DNA of 32,000 nucleotides from Candidatus Brocadia sp. (GTDB taxonomy: Bacteria; Planctomycetota; Brocadiia; Brocadiales; Brocadiaceae), in NCBI GenBank assembly GCA_021650915.1, contig CP091279.1, positions 150,001 to 182,000 on the forward strand, read 5' to 3'. The notes beneath the pieces are model-generated. The model had not been told where the DNA came from. It was given only the letters and a program-made list of their open reading frames with translations, and did not search any database. The position numbers and the translations under genes were made by a program. Shown piece by piece: positions 5,210 to 27,631 of this stretch; position 1 is the stretch's first letter; each line of letters starts with the position of its first letter.

Positions 5210-6529
5210 TTATATTTCTCCTATTTTATAAATATCCATCAATATTTTGAAATTCTTTTCTGCCGTGTACCTTTCCTCAAATTCCTGGCGGGCATTTTTT
5301 CCCATCTCAATGCACGCATCTTCATTTTCAACCATCCACTTTATTTTCAGGGCAAGGTCTTCGGCGTTTCCCGGCTCAAACAGGAGGCCGGTTTTCTTCT
5401 CCTGAACGATTTCAGCTAACGCCCCAAGCCTTGGGGCAATCACCGCCTTGCCGCAAGAAAAGGTTTCAAGAACAGTCATCGGGAACATCTCATACCATAT
5501 TGACGATGTTACCATAAACAGAGCGTCCTTTAAAATTTCCATACTTTCAGAATGGCTTTTTCTCCCGGTAAACTCTATATTTGGTATCCTCTCAATACCG
5601 ACCCTGTCCTCAATCTGTTTCTTTAACGGCCCATCGCCAACGATTTTGAGAAAAACTTCTTTATGAGTCATAGACCGAAGCATCTTAAAAGCATCAACAA
5701 GGATTTCTATACCCTTCTCATAAGAAATTCTTCCAAGAAATACAATGTAATTCCCATGGGAAAATTTCCTGTCGCCTTTTGATAAATTATTTTCTGACTG
5801 GTACTGTTCAGAAAGTCGCTGTCCATTGATTATATCTAAGGGCAATTCATGAATTGCCCCTACAGGTTGTACGCAGAACTTGATTTCTGAACCCGCTAAA
5901 GGGGGGTTGTGGGAATTTAAAAGAAAATTCGGTTTTACAAATATCTTCTCTGCTGGCAGTCCATGCTCTATAAACTTATTCCTCCCAAAATTAGTGAGGG
6001 CGATATATGCGTCGACCTTATTCGTCCATGTCCCGATAAATCTGTGAATAACCTGTGTTAAAGCCACAGGCAAAGAATAAAGTCTGGAATTCCGGTAACA
6101 GCCGTAAAAAGCCCCTTTCCACGGCATTCTGCCAATGCATTCTTCGCATACCTTTCCAACTCTCATAAGAAGTCCACTTGCACAAAACAACCTGAAGTTG
6201 TGAAGCGTTTGAACCACCGGTATTCCAGCATCTTTACAGGCATAGTAGGCAGATGGAGATATTTGGTACCAGATATTATGGAAGTGGGCTATGTCAGGCT
6301 TTTCTTTTGTTATAAGTGTTTTTAGCTCCTTATAAGTTTCTCTGGACCAGATAGTACGAAAAGCCAGTTTCAGTCTATTTGAATCGTTTGCGATATCATC
6401 GTTATACTTTTCATAAGTTATAACGTTAATCCTGTTTTTCCTTAAAAGCTCGACTTCGTTCTTAAATACTATATCTTCTCCAGAGGGAGATGAAGATTGA
6501 TAGAAATTATGAATAATGAGTATTTTCAT
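5210..6529 (-). CDS. GT4-family (GT-B) glycosyltransferase
   Basis: 439 aa. The N-terminus MKILIIHNFY..SGEDIVF and the C-terminal 'VFLGRISYEKGIE...EMFPMTVLETFSCGKAVIA..GALAEIV' fit the Glycos_transf_1 pattern. Confidence 0.85.
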   Translation of the reverse strand: MKILIIHNFYQSSSPSGEDIVFKNEVELLRKNRINVITYEKYNDDIANDSNRLKLAFRTIWSRETYKELKTLITKEKPDIAHFHNIWYQISPSAYYACKDAGIPVVQTLHNFRLFCASGLLMRVGKVCEECIGRMPWKGAFYGCYRNSRLYSLPVALTQVIHRFIGTWTNKVDAYIALTNFGRNKFIEHGLPAEKIFVKPNFLLNSHNPPLAGSEIKFCVQPVGAIHELPLDIINGQRLSEQYQSENNLSKGDRKFSHGNYIVFLGRISYEKGIEILVDAFKMLRSMTHKEVFLKIVGDGPLKKQIEDRVGIERIPNIEFTGRKSHSESMEILKDALFMVTSSIWYEMFPMTVLETFSCGKAVIAPRLGALAEIVQEKKTGLLFEPGNAEDLALKIKWMVENEDACIEMGKNARQEFEERYTAEKNFKILMDIYKIGEI

Positions 6530-17966: not shown

Positions 17967-19644
17967 AGGGTTTTTGGCAAAAATACTGTTCTTTTACATA
18001 TTTCCCTTGTTTTCCCCTTTATTTTAGCCTTGTCTGGGCGTACCTGCCTCCCGGCAGACTGTTTTTCTTCGTGTTTTTTGCTTGCTTAGGCGGCTTTTCG
18101 CAACTTTTCGCACTGCTTCCGTGCCTTCTCCTGCAGCACGTTTCCCAGCTTGTGCAAATTCGCAGCTAACACGCCCATTGCACAATATCTTTTAAAGGCA
18201 TGCAGCCCTTTGTCCGGACACCTATCCAAGCCGTGATGCTCCAAACGATTGATATCCGATTCTACCGCCGAGTGCTTGTGCCTTAGCTTCTTAAATGTCT
18301 TACCCGATTCCTCTTCCTGTTCCGCCTTATTCTTCTTGCCCTTCTTGGGAAGGATTACCTCTGGTATATACAAACTCAGCAACTCTTTATTCTCTTTCTT
18401 GTAAAAACCTTTATCAAAACTTATACTCTTTATTGTGCCTTCTCCGTAACGGCTCAACAACCTATCTGCCAATGGAATTACCAACGATACATCCGCCTGT
18501 TTTTCTCCTACCACATGGTCCACGATGAAACCCCACTGATCGCTTGCTACCAGAATATTATGTCCCAACTCTACCCTTTTGTTTGACTTGCCTTTGTACA
18601 GCCACTCCGTATGCGGCTCAAACAACGAATGAACCTTTTCTGCCGCCGGTATTACCTCATCCCGGATCACCCTTCTCTCCACCAGGTCTATCTGTTTATT
18701 CAACATCCCGTGAAAATACTCCAGTGTCCCTATTTTCCCTGCATGCTTGTCTACCTGGTTCGTCGTTAGCACCTTTTCGTAGATGGCTAACAGACTCGCT
18801 CCTATCTTTTCACTCAAACCCCTCGATAATTCCAAGTAACTCCTCACATGCTCTTCCTTGTTTTTCCCCCCGCTGCTTGACGCCTTTGCGCTTATCCTCA
18901 TCAGCTTTTTTAACTCTCTCCTCCAATATTTGCTCTTGCGCCATCCTTTCCCCGCCAGGATGCCTTCCTCTATTGCATCCTCTATCATGTCCAGACTCTT
19001 GCGTCCCGCATCCCACAATAAATTCATATCGGTCGGAAAGTGTACATTCGTCTCTAACACATACGTATCCACCTTAATACACAGTCCTTCGTCCTTTTTT
19101 TTAACCAACTGATGCCCCGATGATATCACCACTTCATTTATCTGCCTGAGGGTCTCCTCATCCAACAATCTTATATTGTCCTTGATGCTCTGCATCGAAA
19201 AAACCTTCGCCTCTCCAAATGCCGTCTCAACCCCCATTATCTGCCTGATAAGTTTGTGATGGTTGGCAAAATCCTCCAACCTGTCATAATCGGCATCTAA
19301 CCCTAATCTTACCACCGACAACACCAAAATATGCCATAAATCCATCCCATATCTTCCCGTCTTTTTCTTCCCCTTCGTTACCTTCGCCTCTAATATCCGG
19401 AATACCTCCTCGTTCAACTCCGGTGTAACATAGATATGTTGCAACGCCCTCAGTATCGGTGGTAGCTCATCTCGACTCTTTATTGGCAGTTTTACCCCTG
19501 AAATGGGTATGATGCCAAGCTTCAATTGCTGCTCAAATCTCTTTCTCATCTTCTATCGAATGTCCTTTGGCTAGTGGGTTAATGAACCGAATATTTGGAC
19601 TCTTTATACCCAGAATCCCTTCATTTTCGCCATATTTTACCCTT
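17967..19644 (-). mobile_element. IS element carrying the 487-aa DDE transposase (boundaries tentative)
   Basis: Candidate imperfect terminal inverted repeats are agggtttttggcaaaaat (17967-17984) and attttcgccatattttaccct (19624-19644). The match is weak, so the ends are uncertain. Confidence 0.3.
18086..19549 (-). CDS. DDE transposase, IS4/IS5 superfamily (resembles proteins annotated as ISNCY family)
   Basis: 487 aa. 'KVDTYVLETNVHFPTDMNLLWDA', 'ISFDKGFYKKENKELL' and 'HSAVESDINRLEHHGLDRCPDKGL..FKRYCAMGVLAANLHKLG' follow the DDE_Tnp_1-type D, D, E layout. Confidence 0.8.
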   Translation of the reverse strand: MRKRFEQQLKLGIIPISGVKLPIKSRDELPPILRALQHIYVTPELNEEVFRILEAKVTKGKKKTGRYGMDLWHILVLSVVRLGLDADYDRLEDFANHHKLIRQIMGVETAFGEAKVFSMQSIKDNIRLLDEETLRQINEVVISSGHQLVKKKDEGLCIKVDTYVLETNVHFPTDMNLLWDAGRKSLDMIEDAIEEGILAGKGWRKSKYWRRELKKLMRISAKASSSGGKNKEEHVRSYLELSRGLSEKIGASLLAIYEKVLTTNQVDKHAGKIGTLEYFHGMLNKQIDLVERRVIRDEVIPAAEKVHSLFEPHTEWLYKGKSNKRVELGHNILVASDQWGFIVDHVVGEKQADVSLVIPLADRLLSRYGEGTIKSISFDKGFYKKENKELLSLYIPEVILPKKGKKNKAEQEEESGKTFKKLRHKHSAVESDINRLEHHGLDRCPDKGLHAFKRYCAMGVLAANLHKLGNVLQEKARKQCEKLRKAA

Positions 19645-19700: not shown

Positions 19701-20144
19701 TTACAGGGCTCTGGGGGGTTTCCGTTCAAACACTATATATTTCGCAACTTTGCACAGATTTTCATCAGCAGAGACAAAAAGCCAATCATCCTCGGAAATT
19801 AGACTGAAACAGCCCAGATGTAATGCGTCTAATGTTCTAAGTCCGTGATACTTTCCATAACCTTTTAATAGATATTCTGCTTCACGTATAATTATTTCTC
19901 CCAGTGGTTCAATATTGAAATAAGTAAACGCTTCCCCAAAACCTTCAATTGCCTCATTTAATATTGTTCCATCTATTTCATTGTTTCTAAACCTTCTATA
20001 TAAAGCACTGATAAATTCCAATCGAAATAGATCCAAAACCCAAATTTTATTCTCTTTTGAATTTATTAGTTTTGTAACTATCGTTGTTCCCTCTTCTTCA
20101 TGGAAATATTTTACAAGCGCCGATGTATCGAAGAATAGATTCAT
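19701..20144 (-). CDS. vapC: PIN-domain VapC-type toxin
   Basis: All four acidic positions are recognisable (FFDTSALV, RLEFISAL, RTLDALHL, FVSADENL). It has a 4-nt overlap with the upstream small ORF. Confidence 0.8.
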   Translation of the reverse strand: MNLFFDTSALVKYFHEEEGTTIVTKLINSKENKIWVLDLFRLEFISALYRRFRNNEIDGTILNEAIEGFGEAFTYFNIEPLGEIIIREAEYLLKGYGKYHGLRTLDALHLGCFSLISEDDWLFVSADENLCKVAKYIVFERKPPRAL

Positions 20145-20359
20145 ATCCTATCTTCTCTTAGTAACAATATATCGTCACTCAATGAGCCTTTGCATTGCTT
20201 TAGAATATTTCTAACCTTTATGTAGACAGGCCCGCCTTTTGTTTTGGCCTTATGTTTTTTTTGTGGCGATTTAAGAGAAATTATCATTTCGTATATCTTC
20301 ATCATTTCAGAAGGGCCTAAAGATTCTAACTCTTTTATTGCTTGCTCTTTTATTTTCAT
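20141..20359 (-). CDS. VapB-like antitoxin
   Basis: This 72-aa ORF is translationally coupled to the PIN gene and has the C-terminal 'GSLSDDILLLREDRI' typical of small PIN-partner antitoxins. Its ATG overlaps the stop codon of the aminotransferase gene (20356-20359). Confidence 0.5.
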   Translation of the reverse strand: MKIKEQAIKELESLGPSEMMKIYEMIISLKSPQKKHKAKTKGGPVYIKVRNILKQCKGSLSDDILLLREDRI

Positions 20360-21477: not shown

Positions 21478-21935
21478 TCTTCTACCCCTTCGAATCTCTC
21501 TTTATCATCTAAACCCACGTAAGGACCCTGTTTTATCTCTATCATGATTGTATCTTCGAGGAGTTCAAAGCCATGACCCCCTCCGCATAAAAGGATAATA
21601 TCACCTTCATTAAGCATTTCTGAATCGACGTATGTTTTTTCATTTTTATAAAAATTGACTTTTACTTTACCTTTCTTTAACAGAATGACCTCATGGGTAT
21701 AAAGAATCTCCCGTTTGTTTATTTTATGTTTATGAGGTTTAATAATATTTCCCTTTTTGTGCGGTAAATAACCAAGTTGCTGGGAAAAACTGTCAGGGGT
21801 AAAAAAGCGAATAGTATTGCTTGTAAAACTGTTCCGTAGTACTACGGAATAAAGTTCACCCTCATGATACAGATATTCCAATCCTTCTTCTGTGATTTCC
21901 TTTATCATTAAGTATGTATCTCCTTTAGTATTCAA
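21468..21935 (-). CDS. Cupin-fold protein, possibly a sugar-nucleotide isomerase/epimerase (WxcM/FdtA-like role)
   Basis: 155 aa with a 'KPHKHK...HEVILLKKGKVKV...GDIILLCGGGHGFE' beta-barrel pattern. It is operonic with the aminotransferase. The function is inferred from context only. Confidence 0.4.
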   Translation of the reverse strand: MNTKGDTYLMIKEITEEGLEYLYHEGELYSVVLRNSFTSNTIRFFTPDSFSQQLGYLPHKKGNIIKPHKHKINKREILYTHEVILLKKGKVKVNFYKNEKTYVDSEMLNEGDIILLCGGGHGFELLEDTIMIEIKQGPYVGLDDKERFEGVEECK

Positions 21936-24022
21936 CTACCCGGTAAAGAAAGACGAAATTCATCTTTATATAGACCGATATTTTCCATAGGAATGCGTTG
22001 AAAACCCAACTTATAAGCTGGAGAGTCATCCTTTAACTGAAAGTTCAACTTAGTTGGATTTACAAAGCAAGGATCTTCATTCACAAAGTTATTCTGGATT
22101 TTAACGATTTCTTCGTTTACACCATCACGTAGATCAAGCCATTTTCCACCGGAAGCAATATTGCATATTACTTTGTTACCCTCCGGAATAGCAGGATTCC
22201 CGTCATAGAGTGTGATGATTTCAGGATATTTATTAGCATAAGGGGGAAATTTGTATTTTATCATCATTAACCTGCCTGTTAAAGTAGTATCAGTTCCGTC
22301 GAAGTATTTTTTTGCCCATGGCTTCCTAATACCACGGGCATCCACATGAATTGCTGCAATTGAACAACTGACAAAAATATTGTTCTGAACGATATTATCA
22401 CGACCACCTCCAATAACCACACCCCTTTTTCCTTTATAGATTACATTGCCAAAAACTGTTGTACCACTGGCAAAGTCATCAAGATAAATTGCCTGCACAT
22501 CACCTGATCCAAGGTCATGGAAATAGTTATAACGTATGATGTTGCCCCGCTCCGAGTAATCACGCCCCATATAAAAGGCGCCTGCATCGTTGGTTTCCAT
22601 ACATACATGATGAATTTCGTTATATTCAATGATATGCTCATTCCCATTGAGTATGATCGCGCTGTGGGGTGAGTCATGAATAAGGTTATTCGAAATTCTA
22701 TTACCTACACCACTTATTTTGATTGCTGGACGGTAAGTACTGACCCAGCGATTGTAATTATGGATATGATTATTCGTTGCATAGTTGTTAGCTGATGTTA
22801 GTGTTAATCGGTCTCCTCCATTAAGGACAATGCCGCCATCGCCGCATGCATAAATATCGCATCCAGTTACTCCGTTTTCTGTTCCACCGGTAATTTTGAC
22901 TGCCACATTGCCAATATTTCTTAGTGTGCATCCTGCTATACGATTATTGCTGCCGCCCGTTATTTCAACGGCGTTACCCCGACAAATAGCGATTTCTAGA
23001 CCTTGCAGCGTAATATATGAAACGTCTTTCATTTGAATTAATGTATCTGTTAATGAGACATAGGTTTTCCCTTCGCTCAATGGCCCGGGCGGCCAGAAGT
23101 ACAGGATACCGGTTTTACGGTCCAAGTACCATTCCCCAGGTTCGTCAAGTTCTTCTAAAATATTTAATGCGTAATATCTCTTCCCCACAGAGTATCCATA
23201 GACCCCGTGCGGTTCACAGGTAGAAACCTCTTTCTTTACAGTATCTATAGTTTTGACTGTCTCGTAGGAATCTGCCCAGTCCCACGTCCAGTATCCATGC
23301 AACCAGATATCTTTGGTATCCCGCCAATGTTCAGGGCGGTCGCCGTCATACGTGAATTTCCCGCCTTTCTGTCCCGCCGGTACACCAGCGATTTTTACCC
23401 AATCATTATTTGGCCAGCGTGCTAACTGCATGGGTTTGTCCTGAAAGAAGAGTTCTATTCCCGCTGGATACACGGGTCTGCCCATACCACGGGGTTTCAT
23501 CTCCCCAAAGTCTTTGATGCCTTGCGCCTTTAGATTGACCTGCACTATTTTATCCCGGTATGGTGATTCAATTCGCTTAAGAATCGCCGGGTCGTCAATG
23601 GGTTTAAAGCCGGTGATTTCCTTACCCCCGATTAGTTTCACCTTTTCATTGTTATACGCACGGTATACAATTGACGTCTTTTCTGAGCCGCTATCCCACT
23701 TTGTAAGCTCAAAGGGCTTTGTGAGATGATACGTTCCGCTGCGTATATTTACCGTTACAACGCCGGTTGGTAATTGTTTTTTCTGCTTCAGGGCATAAAT
23801 AACATCACGGGCTTTTTCAATGGTTGCAAAGGGTCCGTCTGTATTATTGGCATTTGCTTCAGGTAATTTGCCGGAATATTTATCACTGCCGTCTTTTGAG
23901 ACATAGAATGCAATGCCTTTTGGGTTATCCTGACCGGTTAGCGGTGTAACGGAATTTAAAATAACAAAAACGCATAGTGATGCTAACCAGTAAAATCCAG
24001 ACTTCAAATTTATTCTCTCCAT
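21932..24022 (-). CDS. Secreted right-handed parallel beta-helix repeat protein (pectate-lyase-superfamily fold; polysaccharide lyase/hydrolase candidate)
   Basis: It has an N-terminal signal-like segment (FYWLASLCVFVILNSVTPLTG). It also has repeated turns such as 'NRIAGCTLRNIGNVAVKITGGTENGVTGCDIYACGDGGIVLNGG...NNHIHN...NNLIHDSPHSAIIL'. Confidence 0.75.
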   Translation of the reverse strand: MERINLKSGFYWLASLCVFVILNSVTPLTGQDNPKGIAFYVSKDGSDKYSGKLPEANANNTDGPFATIEKARDVIYALKQKKQLPTGVVTVNIRSGTYHLTKPFELTKWDSGSEKTSIVYRAYNNEKVKLIGGKEITGFKPIDDPAILKRIESPYRDKIVQVNLKAQGIKDFGEMKPRGMGRPVYPAGIELFFQDKPMQLARWPNNDWVKIAGVPAGQKGGKFTYDGDRPEHWRDTKDIWLHGYWTWDWADSYETVKTIDTVKKEVSTCEPHGVYGYSVGKRYYALNILEELDEPGEWYLDRKTGILYFWPPGPLSEGKTYVSLTDTLIQMKDVSYITLQGLEIAICRGNAVEITGGSNNRIAGCTLRNIGNVAVKITGGTENGVTGCDIYACGDGGIVLNGGDRLTLTSANNYATNNHIHNYNRWVSTYRPAIKISGVGNRISNNLIHDSPHSAIILNGNEHIIEYNEIHHVCMETNDAGAFYMGRDYSERGNIIRYNYFHDLGSGDVQAIYLDDFASGTTVFGNVIYKGKRGVVIGGGRDNIVQNNIFVSCSIAAIHVDARGIRKPWAKKYFDGTDTTLTGRLMMIKYKFPPYANKYPEIITLYDGNPAIPEGNKVICNIASGGKWLDLRDGVNEEIVKIQNNFVNEDPCFVNPTKLNFQLKDDSPAYKLGFQRIPMENIGLYKDEFRLSLPGS

Positions 24023-24024
24023 TT

Positions 24025-24272
24025 AGCTTCCCGATTACCACAAGATTACTCACGATTATGGATTTTAATCCAAGAAACCGAGAGGTCATCGTGAGGCGAG
24101 ACTTTAGCTTCTCGATTACCTCTAGATTACTCTCGATTCAGGTTACTTAGCCTCTCGATTACCTCTAGATTACTCTCGATTCAGGTTACTTAGCCTCTCG
24201 ATTACCTCTTGATTACTCACGATTAGAAATTTAAGCTTTTAATCCTGGAAATCGTGAAGTAATCGTGTGGCT
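24025..24272. repeat. Repeat array flanking the 3' side of the GxxExxY gene: an about 85-95-bp block (24025-24118), three tandem 43-bp units (24109-24236) and a second block copy (24192-24272)
   Basis: The unit ctctcgattacctctagattactctcgattcaggttacttagc is repeated head to tail. The blocks contain the stem-loop ctcacgatt...aatcgtgag. Confidence 0.85.
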
Positions 24273-24645
24273 ATAATATCTCCGGATTTTTTACGTATTT
24301 CCTCTTTACCTCAACGCTCTTACCAAAGTTGATCAATAAACCCACTTCTATGCCTGTTGCTTTTAAATAGTTTTTGAGCTGTATTTCATGAATATCGCCG
24401 ATCTTTTCCAGCGCCTTTAATTCTAATACCACTTTATTCTCGACAATAATATCTGCGAAATATTCGCCAACATTTCTATCTTTATATAAAACTGTTGCTG
24501 GTCTTTGTGATTCAGCCTTTAATCCTTTTTCTCGTAATTCCACGAGCAGCGCATTTTCATATACCTTTTCCAGAAACCCGCTTCCCAGGGTATTGTGCAC
24601 TTCAAAGGCACTGCTTATAATCTGCGACGTCAGGTCGTCATGCAT
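24271..24645 (-). CDS. GxxExxY-family protein (PDDEXK_3, PD-(D/E)XK nuclease superfamily)
   Basis: 124 aa. 'LGSGFLEKVYENAL' carries the G-x-x-E-x-x-Y motif. 'ADIIVENKVVLELKA' carries D...E-x-K. 'QLKNYLKATGIEVGLLINFG' is the typical C-terminus. Confidence 0.85.
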   Translation of the reverse strand: MHDDLTSQIISSAFEVHNTLGSGFLEKVYENALLVELREKGLKAESQRPATVLYKDRNVGEYFADIIVENKVVLELKALEKIGDIHEIQLKNYLKATGIEVGLLINFGKSVEVKRKYVKNPEIL

Positions 24646-24654
24646 TTAAGTTTT

Positions 24655-24790
24655 TTTAACCTCCCGATTACCCACGATTCAAGTTACTTAGCTTCCCGAT
24701 TACCTCTAGATTTCTCACGATTAAAACTTTAGGCTTTTAATCCAGGAAATCGTGAGGTCATCGTGAGGCTAGACTTCAGCCTCTCGATTA
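24655..24790. repeat. Repeat block flanking the 5' side of the GxxExxY gene (partial 43-bp unit plus third copy of the about 95-bp block at 24690-24790)
   Basis: By eye, 24690-24790 aligns in direct orientation with 24025-24118 and 24192-24272. Confidence 0.8.
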
Positions 24791-24816
24791 GAATTTATGC
24801 TCTTAAACAAAGAAAT

Positions 24817-26637
24817 TTAGTTTGTTCCAAAAACAAAAGTTGCTGTTTCTATGGGAATATTTTGACTAAAATCTGCCACAAATCCTCTTGCCAATTTTAA
24901 AGCATTATCAATACTGCTTTCTTTGCAAGGTATATCAAGCCGAATCATGAGACTCACCCTATCACTGTTGTCAAGCAAAGAAAACCATATTTCTTTTACC
25001 TTCTCTTCCATCCAATCAACAACATTGTTATCAACACACACCCAATAGATTACTAAAAACCCATCATTTCCCTTCTCGGTATAGAAGCTGCGCGCTTTAA
25101 GAATACGGCTTCCTGCCTGGGCAGGTAAAGCAACGTGGAACTCGGTGTCTGCTGAGTCTTTTATCTTAAATCCAGCGCCGTTAGCGCATATCCTGGGGTT
25201 GTGGAAATTACCGGCATCCACCATGGTAAAAAAGATATTTTCTCCGTTTGTATTAGTATATTCACGCGTAATGCTCTGTTCAATAAACTGGTTCATTTTT
25301 TCCTCTAACTCTAAATCCCAATCCTGCCGCGCATCAACTCCATGCCAGCCCTTAATCTTATAAGGTATTTCTAATTGGGAAAGGATGTCCTGACTGACGT
25401 ATTTTGTTTTTTTTGTGTTTGCACCAGGAGATGCAAAGCAAAAGATAATGGTGAATAACAATAATGCGGTAGTTATATATACCTTCTTGTTTCTATATCC
25501 CTTATTTAGTACTAGTTCATCCCCCTCATCTACACCCCCCCGCCAGGAGTGCGTGATTTTTCCACCCCCTGCGCCCCCGCCAGCGGGGGACAGTTCCTCC
25601 CTCTGTCCCCCTCCATGAGGGGGGATGTGGGAAGTATTTGGCTTGTGTTTCCCCAAAAAATATTCCAAACACATCAATCCCAGTGTGATAATTACAATCA
25701 TAACAATCCCGCTAAAATTATGAAAGAATCCCTGCCCGGCAGCTTCGCCAAAGTAATACGTAATAAGACACAGGATAATTATCCGAAAGAGATTGCCCAG
25801 AAGGGCAAAAGGGATTATTGAGGAGGCCAGGATAACTTTTTTAGAAAAGTCGGCCTTGCTTATGAATACATAAACCAAACCTGCAGAAACCATGGTGATG
25901 AGAGAACGAAAGCCACTGCAGGGCTGTCCTATAAATAGCTCATTATTACCGATAGACAGTAAAAGCCCTTCTCTTGTGATGGGATACTGGAAAGTTTTTA
26001 AGAGTGCCTCTGTTGCGATAGAAATGCCATGACGCATTGGGAGGGTAATACTATCTATAATACCAATAGGAAGAGGTACAAGGAGTATGAGGTAGAGAAT
26101 GGGGAAAGATAAGGCCTTTGTTATTTCCAATCCATAAATACACAACATTAGTCCGTACAAAACCGGGATTAAAGAAAGGGTGGTAAAAAAAATATAATCC
26201 TGACGCCGGCCAAAGACAAATATCGATATTCCAAAGAAAAGAATGAAAATGCCCATGAAATTGCTTGTGAGGTGTAACAATTCACTCCCTTCCACCAAGG
26301 GCAGGGAATTTTTCCACCCCCTGCACCCCCGCCAGCGGGGGACATTTCCTCTCCCTTGCTCCCCCTCAGTGAGAGGGACAAGAGGAATGGGGTTAAGCGT
26401 TTGGAGGTGTTCTCTTAACAGGGTACGTTTGCGCCATACGAGCCAAAGGAACACCGGCATGATAAAATAGGCATGGGTATAATCGGAGCTTGCCCATCGT
26501 CCCTGATAAAGGGCAAAGAAGACGGGGGCGTAGAGCGTCGCTACGAGTATCCAGGGCAAATAATGTTTTATATTACCAATGGATGGAATTACATTTTTCA
26601 TGTTATTTTCACTTTGAAGGATAATTTTATTTACCAT
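24817..26637 (-). CDS. Exosortase fused to a C-terminal EpsI-family domain
   Basis: 606 aa. The polytopic N-terminal domain contains 'IGQPCSGFRSL' (exosortase Cys motif). The C-terminal soluble domain has 'IKGWHG' and 'FHNPRICANGAGF' (EpsI-like). The real start may be M13 (26601). Confidence 0.85.
   Translation of the reverse strand: MVNKIILQSENNMKNVIPSIGNIKHYLPWILVATLYAPVFFALYQGRWASSDYTHAYFIMPVFLWLVWRKRTLLREHLQTLNPIPLVPLTEGEQGRGNVPRWRGCRGWKNSLPLVEGSELLHLTSNFMGIFILFFGISIFVFGRRQDYIFFTTLSLIPVLYGLMLCIYGLEITKALSFPILYLILLVPLPIGIIDSITLPMRHGISIATEALLKTFQYPITREGLLLSIGNNELFIGQPCSGFRSLITMVSAGLVYVFISKADFSKKVILASSIIPFALLGNLFRIIILCLITYYFGEAAGQGFFHNFSGIVMIVIITLGLMCLEYFLGKHKPNTSHIPPHGGGQREELSPAGGGAGGGKITHSWRGGVDEGDELVLNKGYRNKKVYITTALLLFTIIFCFASPGANTKKTKYVSQDILSQLEIPYKIKGWHGVDARQDWDLELEEKMNQFIEQSITREYTNTNGENIFFTMVDAGNFHNPRICANGAGFKIKDSADTEFHVALPAQAGSRILKARSFYTEKGNDGFLVIYWVCVDNNVVDWMEEKVKEIWFSLLDNSDRVSLMIRLDIPCKESSIDNALKLARGFVADFSQNIPIETATFVFGTN
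25556..25624. repeat. GC-rich hairpin repeat, copy A (inside the exosortase ORF)
   Basis: atttttccaccccctgcgcccccgccagcgggggacagttcctcc...ccccctccatgagggggg contains the palindrome CCCCCGC-CA-GCGGGGG. It is about 85% identical by eye to 26308-26378. Confidence 0.8.
26308..26378. repeat. GC-rich hairpin repeat, copy B (inside the exosortase ORF)
   Basis: It has the same orientation and the same core palindrome as copy A. The minor ORF 26169-26381 reads it as ..SPAGGGAGGGK.., identical to the host-frame reading of copy A. Confidence 0.8.
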
Positions 26638-27202: not shown

Positions 27203-27631
27203 TCAAATATCCCCGATCCATTTTATCCACTTCAGGTCTTTTCCTGCCACATTGAACAGGCCCCTGTCTGCCGTGATCAGAAGAATTCCCTCATCGTCAG
27301 CAGTTGCTATATAGCTTGCATCATAGGCAGTACAATGGTACGTCTTACCGTAATAAAATAGTTTTGGGTAAAGGTGTGCAAGATTCTTCTGCTTAATGCC
27401 TAAGTTTATAAATCCCTCAATCGCAGAATAAATCTTCTCCTCGTCGATCCTTCCCTTTTTCTGCGCCACCATTAAACCGTTAATTACCTCATATTCCAGC
27501 AGCGAAGGCGCTATCATATCAAATTCGCCCGATATGTAACCGGTTAATAAATGCACCGCCTTTTGGCCATGATCTTCATCGTCTAAATACCACTTGAGGA
27601 CTACGCTTGCATCGACAACTATTCGTTTCAT
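27203..27631 (-). CDS. vapC: PIN-domain VapC-type toxin
   Basis: VVDASVVLKW, LLEYEVINGL, TAYDASYIATA and LITADRGL show all four acidic positions. It has an ATGA overlap with the upstream antitoxin. Confidence 0.85.
   Translation of the reverse strand: MKRIVVDASVVLKWYLDDEDHGQKAVHLLTGYISGEFDMIAPSLLEYEVINGLMVAQKKGRIDEEKIYSAIEGFINLGIKQKNLAHLYPKLFYYGKTYHCTAYDASYIATADDEGILLITADRGLFNVAGKDLKWIKWIGDI

Follow-up and report, generated by a model that had tools for sequence, protein, structure and literature searches.

Why does a small orphan nuclease gene lie inside an array of short repeats in the exopolysaccharide operon of an anammox bacterium? The question is raised by a GxxExxY (PDDEXK_3) gene in a 32,000-nt stretch of Candidatus Brocadia sp. 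(assembly GCA_021650915.1, contig CP091279.1, positions 150,001 to 182,000), hereafter called the window, whose own positions are used as coordinates below. An initial annotation of this DNA described repeats around the gene and proposed that a selfish or homing nuclease gene had been inserted at a defined point of its own repeat family. The analysis reported here establishes that nuclease gene and repeats are associated, and the class of repeat motif tracks the protein clade. The best explanation is a nuclease with cognate repeats that follows a logic similar to RAYT transposases and REPIN repeats while using a PD-(D/E)XK enzyme, and we give this explanation about an even chance of being right. 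The locus exemplifies a general property, apparently undescribed so far, of a large family of orphan nucleases.

Repeat finding resolved the region 24023-24792 into three long blocks of repeats plus a tandem array with a period of 43 bp. Three repeat families were recognized, namely D1 (copies at 24118-24230, 24161-24273 and 24659-24771), D2 (five copies of 43 nt) and D3 (copies at 24060-24118, 24234-24292 and 24732-24790), and Tandem Repeats Finder gave a 43-bp period at 24104-24224 with 2.8 copies and 96% matches. All of the blocks and tandem units are composed of a single 10-11-nt motif, TAATCGNGAG, which occurs 7 times (0.14 expected), every time within 24049-24790 and nowhere else in the window. 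A 13-mer version of the motif with at most 2 mismatches was found 14 times in the window versus 2.0 expected, all within 24027-24792. Each block of 85-100 bp is an imperfect hairpin, a unit of about 80 nt in which a left arm carrying the motif twice (gene sense TAGCCTCACGATGACCTCACGATT) is joined through a loop of about 25 nt to a right arm carrying it three times (gene sense AATCGTGAGnAATCnnGAGGTAATCGnGArGCTAA). Duplication of the right arm accounts for the 43-bp tandem units. The arrays as a whole are inverted groups, each with two to four motif copies. Predicted folding of the flanks exceeds that of shuffled controls (z -3.0 to -4.5).

On the gene strand, the exosortase stop is followed by a right-arm end, hairpin A, a partial right arm, a 12-nt A-rich leader and the GxxExxY gene, and then by hairpin B, two extra right arms and hairpin C, whose end (..GGGAAGCTAA) adjoins the ATG of a beta-helix gene (Table 1). 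The GxxExxY gene lies within the exopolysaccharide operon, and the genes next to it have the same orientation. The CTA on the + strand at 24271-24273 provides the TAG stop of the gene together with the first bases of an arm (sense TAGCCACACGATTAC), and the start codon stands 12-13 nt from the next arm (sense ..GGTAATCGGGAGGTT-AAAAAAACTTAA-ATG). The same type of junction without a gene reads ..TAATCGAGAGGC-TGAAGTC-TAGCCTCACGAT.. at 24760-24790. In these respects the initial annotation was accurate: its three blocks and tandem units were recovered by repeat finding and by Tandem Repeats Finder, its comparison of the two junctions, including the 'cta' that supplies the stop codon, was correct to the base, and at this locus the gene does occupy a short junction of a right arm and a left arm. 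No Rfam 15 family reached its gathering score across 14 sources, with only tRNAs found in 13 related loci, and a permissive Rfam scan of this region returned only sub-threshold matches resembling microRNA precursors. Scanning for promoters and terminators gave no signal in excess of shuffles.

The encoded protein matched PF13366 (E 7.8e-43, 146 bits, cut-off 22) and TIGR04256 (GxxExxY, E 2e-42, 144 bits, cut-off 35), exceeding the curated cut-offs of both family models, and PDDEXK_3 was its only domain in profile scans. In an alignment of 30 sequences of its clade, D65, E75 and K77 of the PD-(D/E)XK site (D-ExK) are invariant, as are G23, E26 and Y29. The AlphaFold2 model (predicted local distance difference test score, pLDDT, 89) has a restriction-endonuclease-like alpha/beta fold. 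The best Foldseek matches were Cas4 SSO0001 (4ic1, E 8e-5, template modelling (TM) score 0.60), Hjc resolvase (2wiw/2wcz) and lambda exonuclease, and the likeness of the model to Cas4, archaeal Hjc, lambda exonuclease and tRNA-splicing endonuclease is distant (TM 0.46-0.60). The nuclease fold that the initial annotation assigned to the gene is borne out, with the three catalytic residues intact, and judged by these residues the product would be an active PD-(D/E)XK nuclease. No relative was found by sequence in the PDB, and neither the PADLOC library of anti-phage defence nor the PHROGs library of phage proteins gave a match. The family comprises 18,255 clusters at 50% identity (E up to 1e-3). 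Many relatives (P0241-P0245 and others) are 250-290 aa long and contain the domain twice in tandem, an arrangement suggesting that proteins with one domain work as dimers. No functional study of GxxExxY/PDDEXK_3 proteins and no account of the repeats came up in the literature, whether it was searched by family name, by accession or by repeat sequence.

The same pair of gene and repeats was found in other contexts. Homologues with 60-93% identity bear the same arms on both flanks between DegT and Bac_transf (locus L011), between UDP-glucose dehydrogenase and epimerase (L020), and in genomes of Pelotalea chapellei, a Nitrospinota metagenome-assembled genome (MAG), Desulfuromonadales and Geobacter (L025, L085, L086, L106), and the open reading frames (ORFs) that the motif brackets are almost exclusively GxxExxY genes. 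Gene and arms are not arranged uniformly within this one clade; the order is left arm-gene-right arm in L011, L085 and L106, right arm-gene-left arm in the window and L015, and left arm-gene-left arm in L020. The dehydrogenase/epimerase junction was seen in two forms, with gene-less hairpins in Brocadia sp. WS118 (L097, 1000-1200) and with a gene-bearing array on a metagenome contig (L020, 3800-4650). L097 and L020 were considered as an empty/filled pair and rejected, their flanking genes being just 42-62% identical; this is a recurrent junction type and not an allele pair.

The relation between gene and motif across the family was assessed with an unbiased set of 80 metagenome GxxExxY loci, whose proteins are 52-65% identical to that of the window. 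The window motif was present in just 3 of the 80 loci, which is the background rate, and the idea that it flanks all GxxExxY genes was rejected in favour of clade-specific motifs. At 63 loci (79%) there are arrays of a different 9-11-nt motif, with at least 4 motif matches within 250 nt of the gene. These belong to the classes CRCNGAT, ACAKGAT, CRCNGAC and WTATGAT, which are mutually exclusive per locus and bring the total to five motif classes. The arrays mostly start at or inside the stop codon, and a complete hairpin or a left arm alone is found 10-40 nt ahead of the start codon. Altogether 92 of 128 arms (72%) lie within 150 nt of the gene, a zone that makes up about 8% of the sampled sequence. 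When flanks were compared with each other regardless of class, a repeat score of at least 15 was reached at 76% of loci versus 2% of control positions (p 1e-15). The nearest protein neighbour had the same motif class in 90% of cases versus 28% by permutation (maximum 53%, 2000 permutations). The coupling of gene and repeat family suggested by the initial annotation is far beyond chance. Its alternative possibility, that paralogues are unlinked to this repeat family, holds for the window motif, which distant genes do not have, and fails for repeats of the same nature, since motifs of a comparable kind accompany these genes.

Separation of the classes is best at residues 84, 88 and 91, on one face of helix 85-97, and at 117-118. 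These five are candidate specificity residues, only as a prediction that is confounded by phylogeny. Gene and neighbours share one orientation at about 85% of the loci, and the median gaps between them are 130 and 78 nt. One Ca. Loosdrechtia contig (L093) has a gene-less arm of the window class at 591 and, 5.4 kb away at 6009-6440, a GxxExxY gene of another clade followed by a AATCTGCGT-type array; therefore, one genome can harbour more than one class together with the gene that belongs to each. On three other contigs (L169, L188, L199) there are two tandem GxxExxY genes, with arrays of the same class around both.

The arms are also dispersed without the gene. A 25-nt right-arm pattern was scanned over 596 Gb, where about 4 chance matches are expected by arithmetic, and at least 120 genome stretches were matched. 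The matched genomes include Brocadia, Kuenenia, Scalindua, Loosdrechtia and Geobacteraceae (Geobacterales), as well as Thermodesulfobacteriota, Nitrospirota, Nitrospinota and Bacteriovoracaceae; two of the genomes are from isolates. In the 8-kb stretches examined around the 120 matches listed, a GxxExxY ORF was present in 7 and none was nearby in 113. Gene-less arms form hairpins of 70-90 nt between genes in several phyla; 129 of 136 copies are intergenic, and they occur in both orientations and in all settings of gene orientation, more often between convergent than between divergent genes. Left and right arms are reverse complements of each other, that is, terminal inverted repeats. In a duplex-energy test of arm pairing the controls were strong too, and identity matching was used instead, by which 55 of 122 anchors had a partner arm upstream and 41 had one downstream, versus 3 in controls. 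Downstream spacers between arms measure 7-21 nt. Twenty-five copies taken from a single MAG have a core of about 70 nt in common within unrelated flanks, and their alignment showed no consistent flanking duplication. Viral contigs held no copy of the arm pattern. Other short periodic repeats with units of about 8-10 nt (CACGAAG.., CACAGAG..) stand beside TAATCG-type hairpins in L029, L034 and L039, and may represent a second motif family with a different partner gene.

Table 1. Features of the GxxExxY locus (window coordinates)
Feature	Position	Strand	Evidence or remark
GxxExxY/PDDEXK_3 gene, 124 aa, PD-(D/E)XK fold	24271-24645	-	PF13366, TIGR04256, alignment, AlphaFold2
Hairpin unit A, upstream of gene (gene sense)	24688-24771	-	families D1-D3; RNA folding z -3.0
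Parts of unit A	left arm 24748-24771, loop 24723-24747, right arm 24688-24722	-	
Solitary right-arm end, sense TAATCGAGAGGC	24779-24790	-	with unit A, uninterrupted right arm-spacer-left arm junction
Partial right arm, two motif copies, sense AATCGTGGGTAATCGGGAGGTT	24658-24679	-	motif matches
A-rich leader, 12 nt, between partial right arm and start codon	24646-24657	-	
Hairpin unit B, directly 3' of gene	24190-24273	-	repeat families; folding z -4.5 (24020-24275)
Parts of unit B	left arm 24250-24273 (includes TAG stop), loop 24225-24249, right arm 24190-24224	-	
Two extra 43-bp right-arm copies (unit B's right arm being the third)	24104-24189	-	Tandem Repeats Finder
Hairpin unit C	24023-24099	-	left arm 24076-24099, loop, right arm 24023-24057
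Beta-helix gene, 696 aa	21932-24022	-	inside the 2907-bp block
Block absent from Ca. Brocadia sp. UTAMX2, 2907 bp	21909-24815	-	blastn colinearity break

How stable the pair is at this site was seen by comparing strains and species. Candidatus Brocadia assemblies that encode the identical protein include GCA_000987375.1, which we take to be Ca. Brocadia fulgida. The context is identical in all ten places listed and only the cassette-bearing form was seen, the sole difference being one strain (contig L002) with two instead of three 43-bp units and an identical gene. The arrays are dynamic, with arm copy number differing between strains that have identical genes. Many short-read contigs stop about 90 nt past the gene, inside the 43-bp array (24104-24232). 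In a more distant, sister species (L015-L017, L221) the block occupies the same site, with a different number of hairpins. Its GxxExxY protein is 93% identical to that of the window (nonsynonymous divergence dN 0.034, synonymous divergence dS 0.76, dN/dS about 0.05), whereas the flanking genes are only 49-64% identical (dS about 1.3). The GxxExxY protein is under strong purifying selection, and the gene is a conserved resident that has not been homing recently.

Two further relatives were reached through exosortase homologues. Ca. Brocadia sp. UTAMX2 (L225) is colinear with the window on both sides at 86-98% nucleotide identity, and the blastn colinearity breaks exactly at 24816 and 21908. From the exosortase stop to the start of the next gene there are 158 unrelated nt in UTAMX2 versus 2907 nt in the window, and what is missing comprises both genes, GxxExxY and beta-helix, along with every hairpin. 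No intact unit is present in the 158-nt spacer, which has only two AATCG-containing strings that could be relics. Repeats, GxxExxY gene and beta-helix gene were gained or lost jointly as one 2.9-kb block. The strain comparison proposed in the initial annotation did produce a relative without the gene, but the whole block is absent and the site has no empty repeat unit. A still more distant relative (L228) has a single gene-less hairpin right behind the exosortase gene and a different downstream gene, and other distant relatives have no hairpin there. A search for empty sites through beta-helix homologues was unproductive, the closest contig starting within the repeat and the rest lying in unrelated contexts. 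In UTAMX2 a stretch of 190 nt (L225 1911-2099, 97% identical to window 20007-20196) has a different relative position, which indicates a further rearrangement or repeat in the locus.

The explanation that we favour, a nuclease acting on cognate repeats, would work as follows. The nuclease would recognize the arms made of its own motif by binding and probably by cutting them. Such recognition would hold gene and repeats together, and would let the arms duplicate and disperse. A wider proposal, which we put forward tentatively and consider less than probable, is that GxxExxY proteins are the partner enzymes of a large unrecognized superfamily of periodic-motif hairpins, that clade-specific reading of 9-11-nt motifs maintains or spreads these REPIN-like elements, and that the pair crosses phyla.

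Several observations weigh against nuclease-driven repeats. Recognition of the arms by the protein is proposed from co-location and co-variation, both seen at the sequence level, and the co-variation could partly mirror host phylogeny, as the metagenome contigs carry no host label; such an effect is excluded for the window's class alone, which spans phyla. The MAG richest in gene-less copies (more than 25 loci) shows no GxxExxY gene in the sampled 8-kb stretches. Compensatory changes between the arms are not clear (61 G-T versus 42 A-C mismatches), which leaves a hairpin or cruciform substrate without support from this side; because of this, the arms look more like arrays of recognition motifs than like a selected stem. 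Placement of the gene relative to the arms is not constant. There is also no sign of recent gene movement, with the same context in the ten listed places and in the sister species.

The closest known parallel is formed by RAYT transposases and the repetitive extragenic palindromic (REP) and REPIN repeats (Bertels and Rainey 2011; PMC3116915; PMC3337134). In both cases members of a family of short palindromic repeats stand on either side of a gene for a small enzyme and are also scattered between other genes as inverted doublets lacking it, the repeat sequence is particular to the enzyme clade (host taxonomy being controlled here only for the window's class), and the gene is resident and conserved instead of multiplying. 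In contrast, RAYTs are HUH/Y1 transposases related to IS200/IS605, whereas the enzyme here is a 124-aa PD-(D/E)XK protein; therefore it is not a member of the REPIN-RAYT system and the comparison concerns only how it works. The arms also differ, being tandem copies of a 9-11-nt motif and not one REP palindrome, and some contigs carry tandem GxxExxY genes. REPIN-RAYT pairs are described as vertically inherited, whereas the window's class is common to several phyla, and therefore horizontal transfer is implied. A second parallel is provided by miniature inverted-repeat transposable elements and their parent insertion sequences. The gene-less units resemble them in length (70-90 nt), inverted arms, conserved ends, unrelated flanks and many copies per genome, and the loop of the gene-less unit is similar to the leader that the gene-bearing form has in L011. 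Unlike in those elements, no transposase of a known family is involved and the arms are periodic motif arrays.

Among the alternatives, classical homing survives best and is still unlikely. Here the nuclease would cut an intact unit at one point and repair would copy the gene in, so that all paralogues share the same position. Free-standing and PD-(D/E)XK homing endonuclease genes are known, such as I-Ssp6803I and the phage seg and mob genes, and like them the GxxExxY gene is a small nuclease gene between conserved genes whose presence varies among relatives. The exact fit of the gene in the junction of right arm, spacer and left arm, with an arm supplying the stop codon, would be explained by homing, as would uninterrupted junctions of like kind with spacers of 7-21 nt and the gene-less hairpin at the equivalent exosortase 3' junction of L228. 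The lower dS of GxxExxY than of its neighbours between the two Brocadia species would fit a later re-invasion. However, no fixed insertion point exists, since homologues of the same clade show three arrangements of gene and arms, and the insertion of a cassette at a defined repeat point, as originally proposed, is not supported. UTAMX2 offers no intact target, lacking the gene, any intact unit at the site and also the beta-helix gene, and strong purifying selection together with a fixed context speaks against a cycling element. Of the original idea of a selfish gene targeting its own repeats, the coupling remains; the homing part finds no support in the variable position, UTAMX2, the conservation of the gene or the mostly gene-less repeats.

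An intervening element acting at the RNA level is improbable as well. In such an element the arms would be RNA stems, a selfish ORF would be processed out of the operon transcript by the host, and the nuclease would be unrelated to the arms. There is a precedent in ORF-bearing intervening sequences of 23S rRNA, for example that of Coxiella with S23p (PMC4990558), where inverted repeats that can pair into a long stem likewise enclose an ORF of about 120-130 aa, which runs in sense direction within a host transcript and is regarded as selfish. The co-orientation of about 85% of the loci with both neighbours across short gaps, the lack of promoter or terminator signal above chance and the strong predicted folding (z -3.0 to -4.5) all agree with this possibility. 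However, the paired positions of the arms show no covariation, with no clear excess of G-T over A-C, and gene-less copies stand in both orientations and also between convergent genes. A plain stem would require neither periodicity of the motif nor its agreement with protein clade, and no Rfam family was matched. The precedent itself differs in three ways: the GxxExxY element lies between protein-coding genes and not in rRNA, its ORF encodes a PD-(D/E)XK protein whereas S23p is a four-helix bundle, and gene-less copies are dispersed. The four-helix-bundle family of 23S rRNA intervening-sequence proteins occupies niches like those of GxxExxY genes.

Quite improbable is a recombination module of polysaccharide loci, in which arrays with or without the nuclease mark junctions where glycan genes are swapped between genomes, with the beta-helix gene as cargo and an outcome like that of integron cassettes. 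The block absent from UTAMX2 does hold the beta-helix gene plus repeats, and hairpins lie between polysaccharide-synthesis genes in the window, L011, L020, L097 and L228. However, the surroundings contain no integrase or other recombinase, no hairpin follows the beta-helix gene at its 3' end, and many gene-less copies occur in unrelated contexts. An integron cassette is not indicated either: no integrase was found among the 13 window proteins scanned, and the arm ends GGCTAA/TTAGCC differ by inspection from the attC core (GTTRRRY). A role in RNA processing and a role in the swapping of glycan genes are both possible. Finally, that host REP-like repeats and a small orphan gene merely piled up in permissive intergenic DNA without functional link is strongly disfavoured, because, even with 113 of 120 listed repeat loci free of the gene and toxin-antitoxin genes and an insertion sequence (IS) element in the surroundings, arms are concentrated beside the gene (72% in about 8% of sequence), flanks repeat each other far above control (76% versus 2%), motif class follows protein clade and the same gene-motif pair recurs across phyla and contexts.

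If the wider proposal on GxxExxY proteins is true, they and their hairpins would be a second kind of enzyme-and-repeat system in bacteria, mechanistically independent and standing alongside RAYT-REPIN. The results provide a concrete hypothesis for the function of GxxExxY/PDDEXK_3 proteins, that the substrate is the motif array adjoining the gene, and predict specificity pairs of five motif classes for five protein clades, a possible source of small sequence-specific nucleases. A nuclease that drives its repeats would also be a new model for the persistence of short repeats in compact genomes. The analysis has identified a cross-phylum family of intergenic hairpins that has no Rfam entry and whose repeats break short-read assemblies at these loci. 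For anammox bacteria, the block marks a variable point of the exopolysaccharide locus.

PIN-domain toxin genes and an IS4-type DDE transposase are interspersed in the exopolysaccharide locus (27203-27631, 19701-20144 and 18086-19549), and in the homologous loci L011, L020 and L225, PIN, HicA, PemK and HEPN/NTase genes lie close to GxxExxY cassettes. Within the exosortase/EpsI ORF, for which the B. fulgida annotation gives a shorter protein of 406 aa, an 80-nt G+C-rich element occurs twice (25532-25611 and 26284-26363, 78% identical). The two copies are read in two frames (..PAGGGAGGGK.. and ..PRWRGCRGWK..) with the ORF unbroken, and the element looks like an intragenic mobile repeat.

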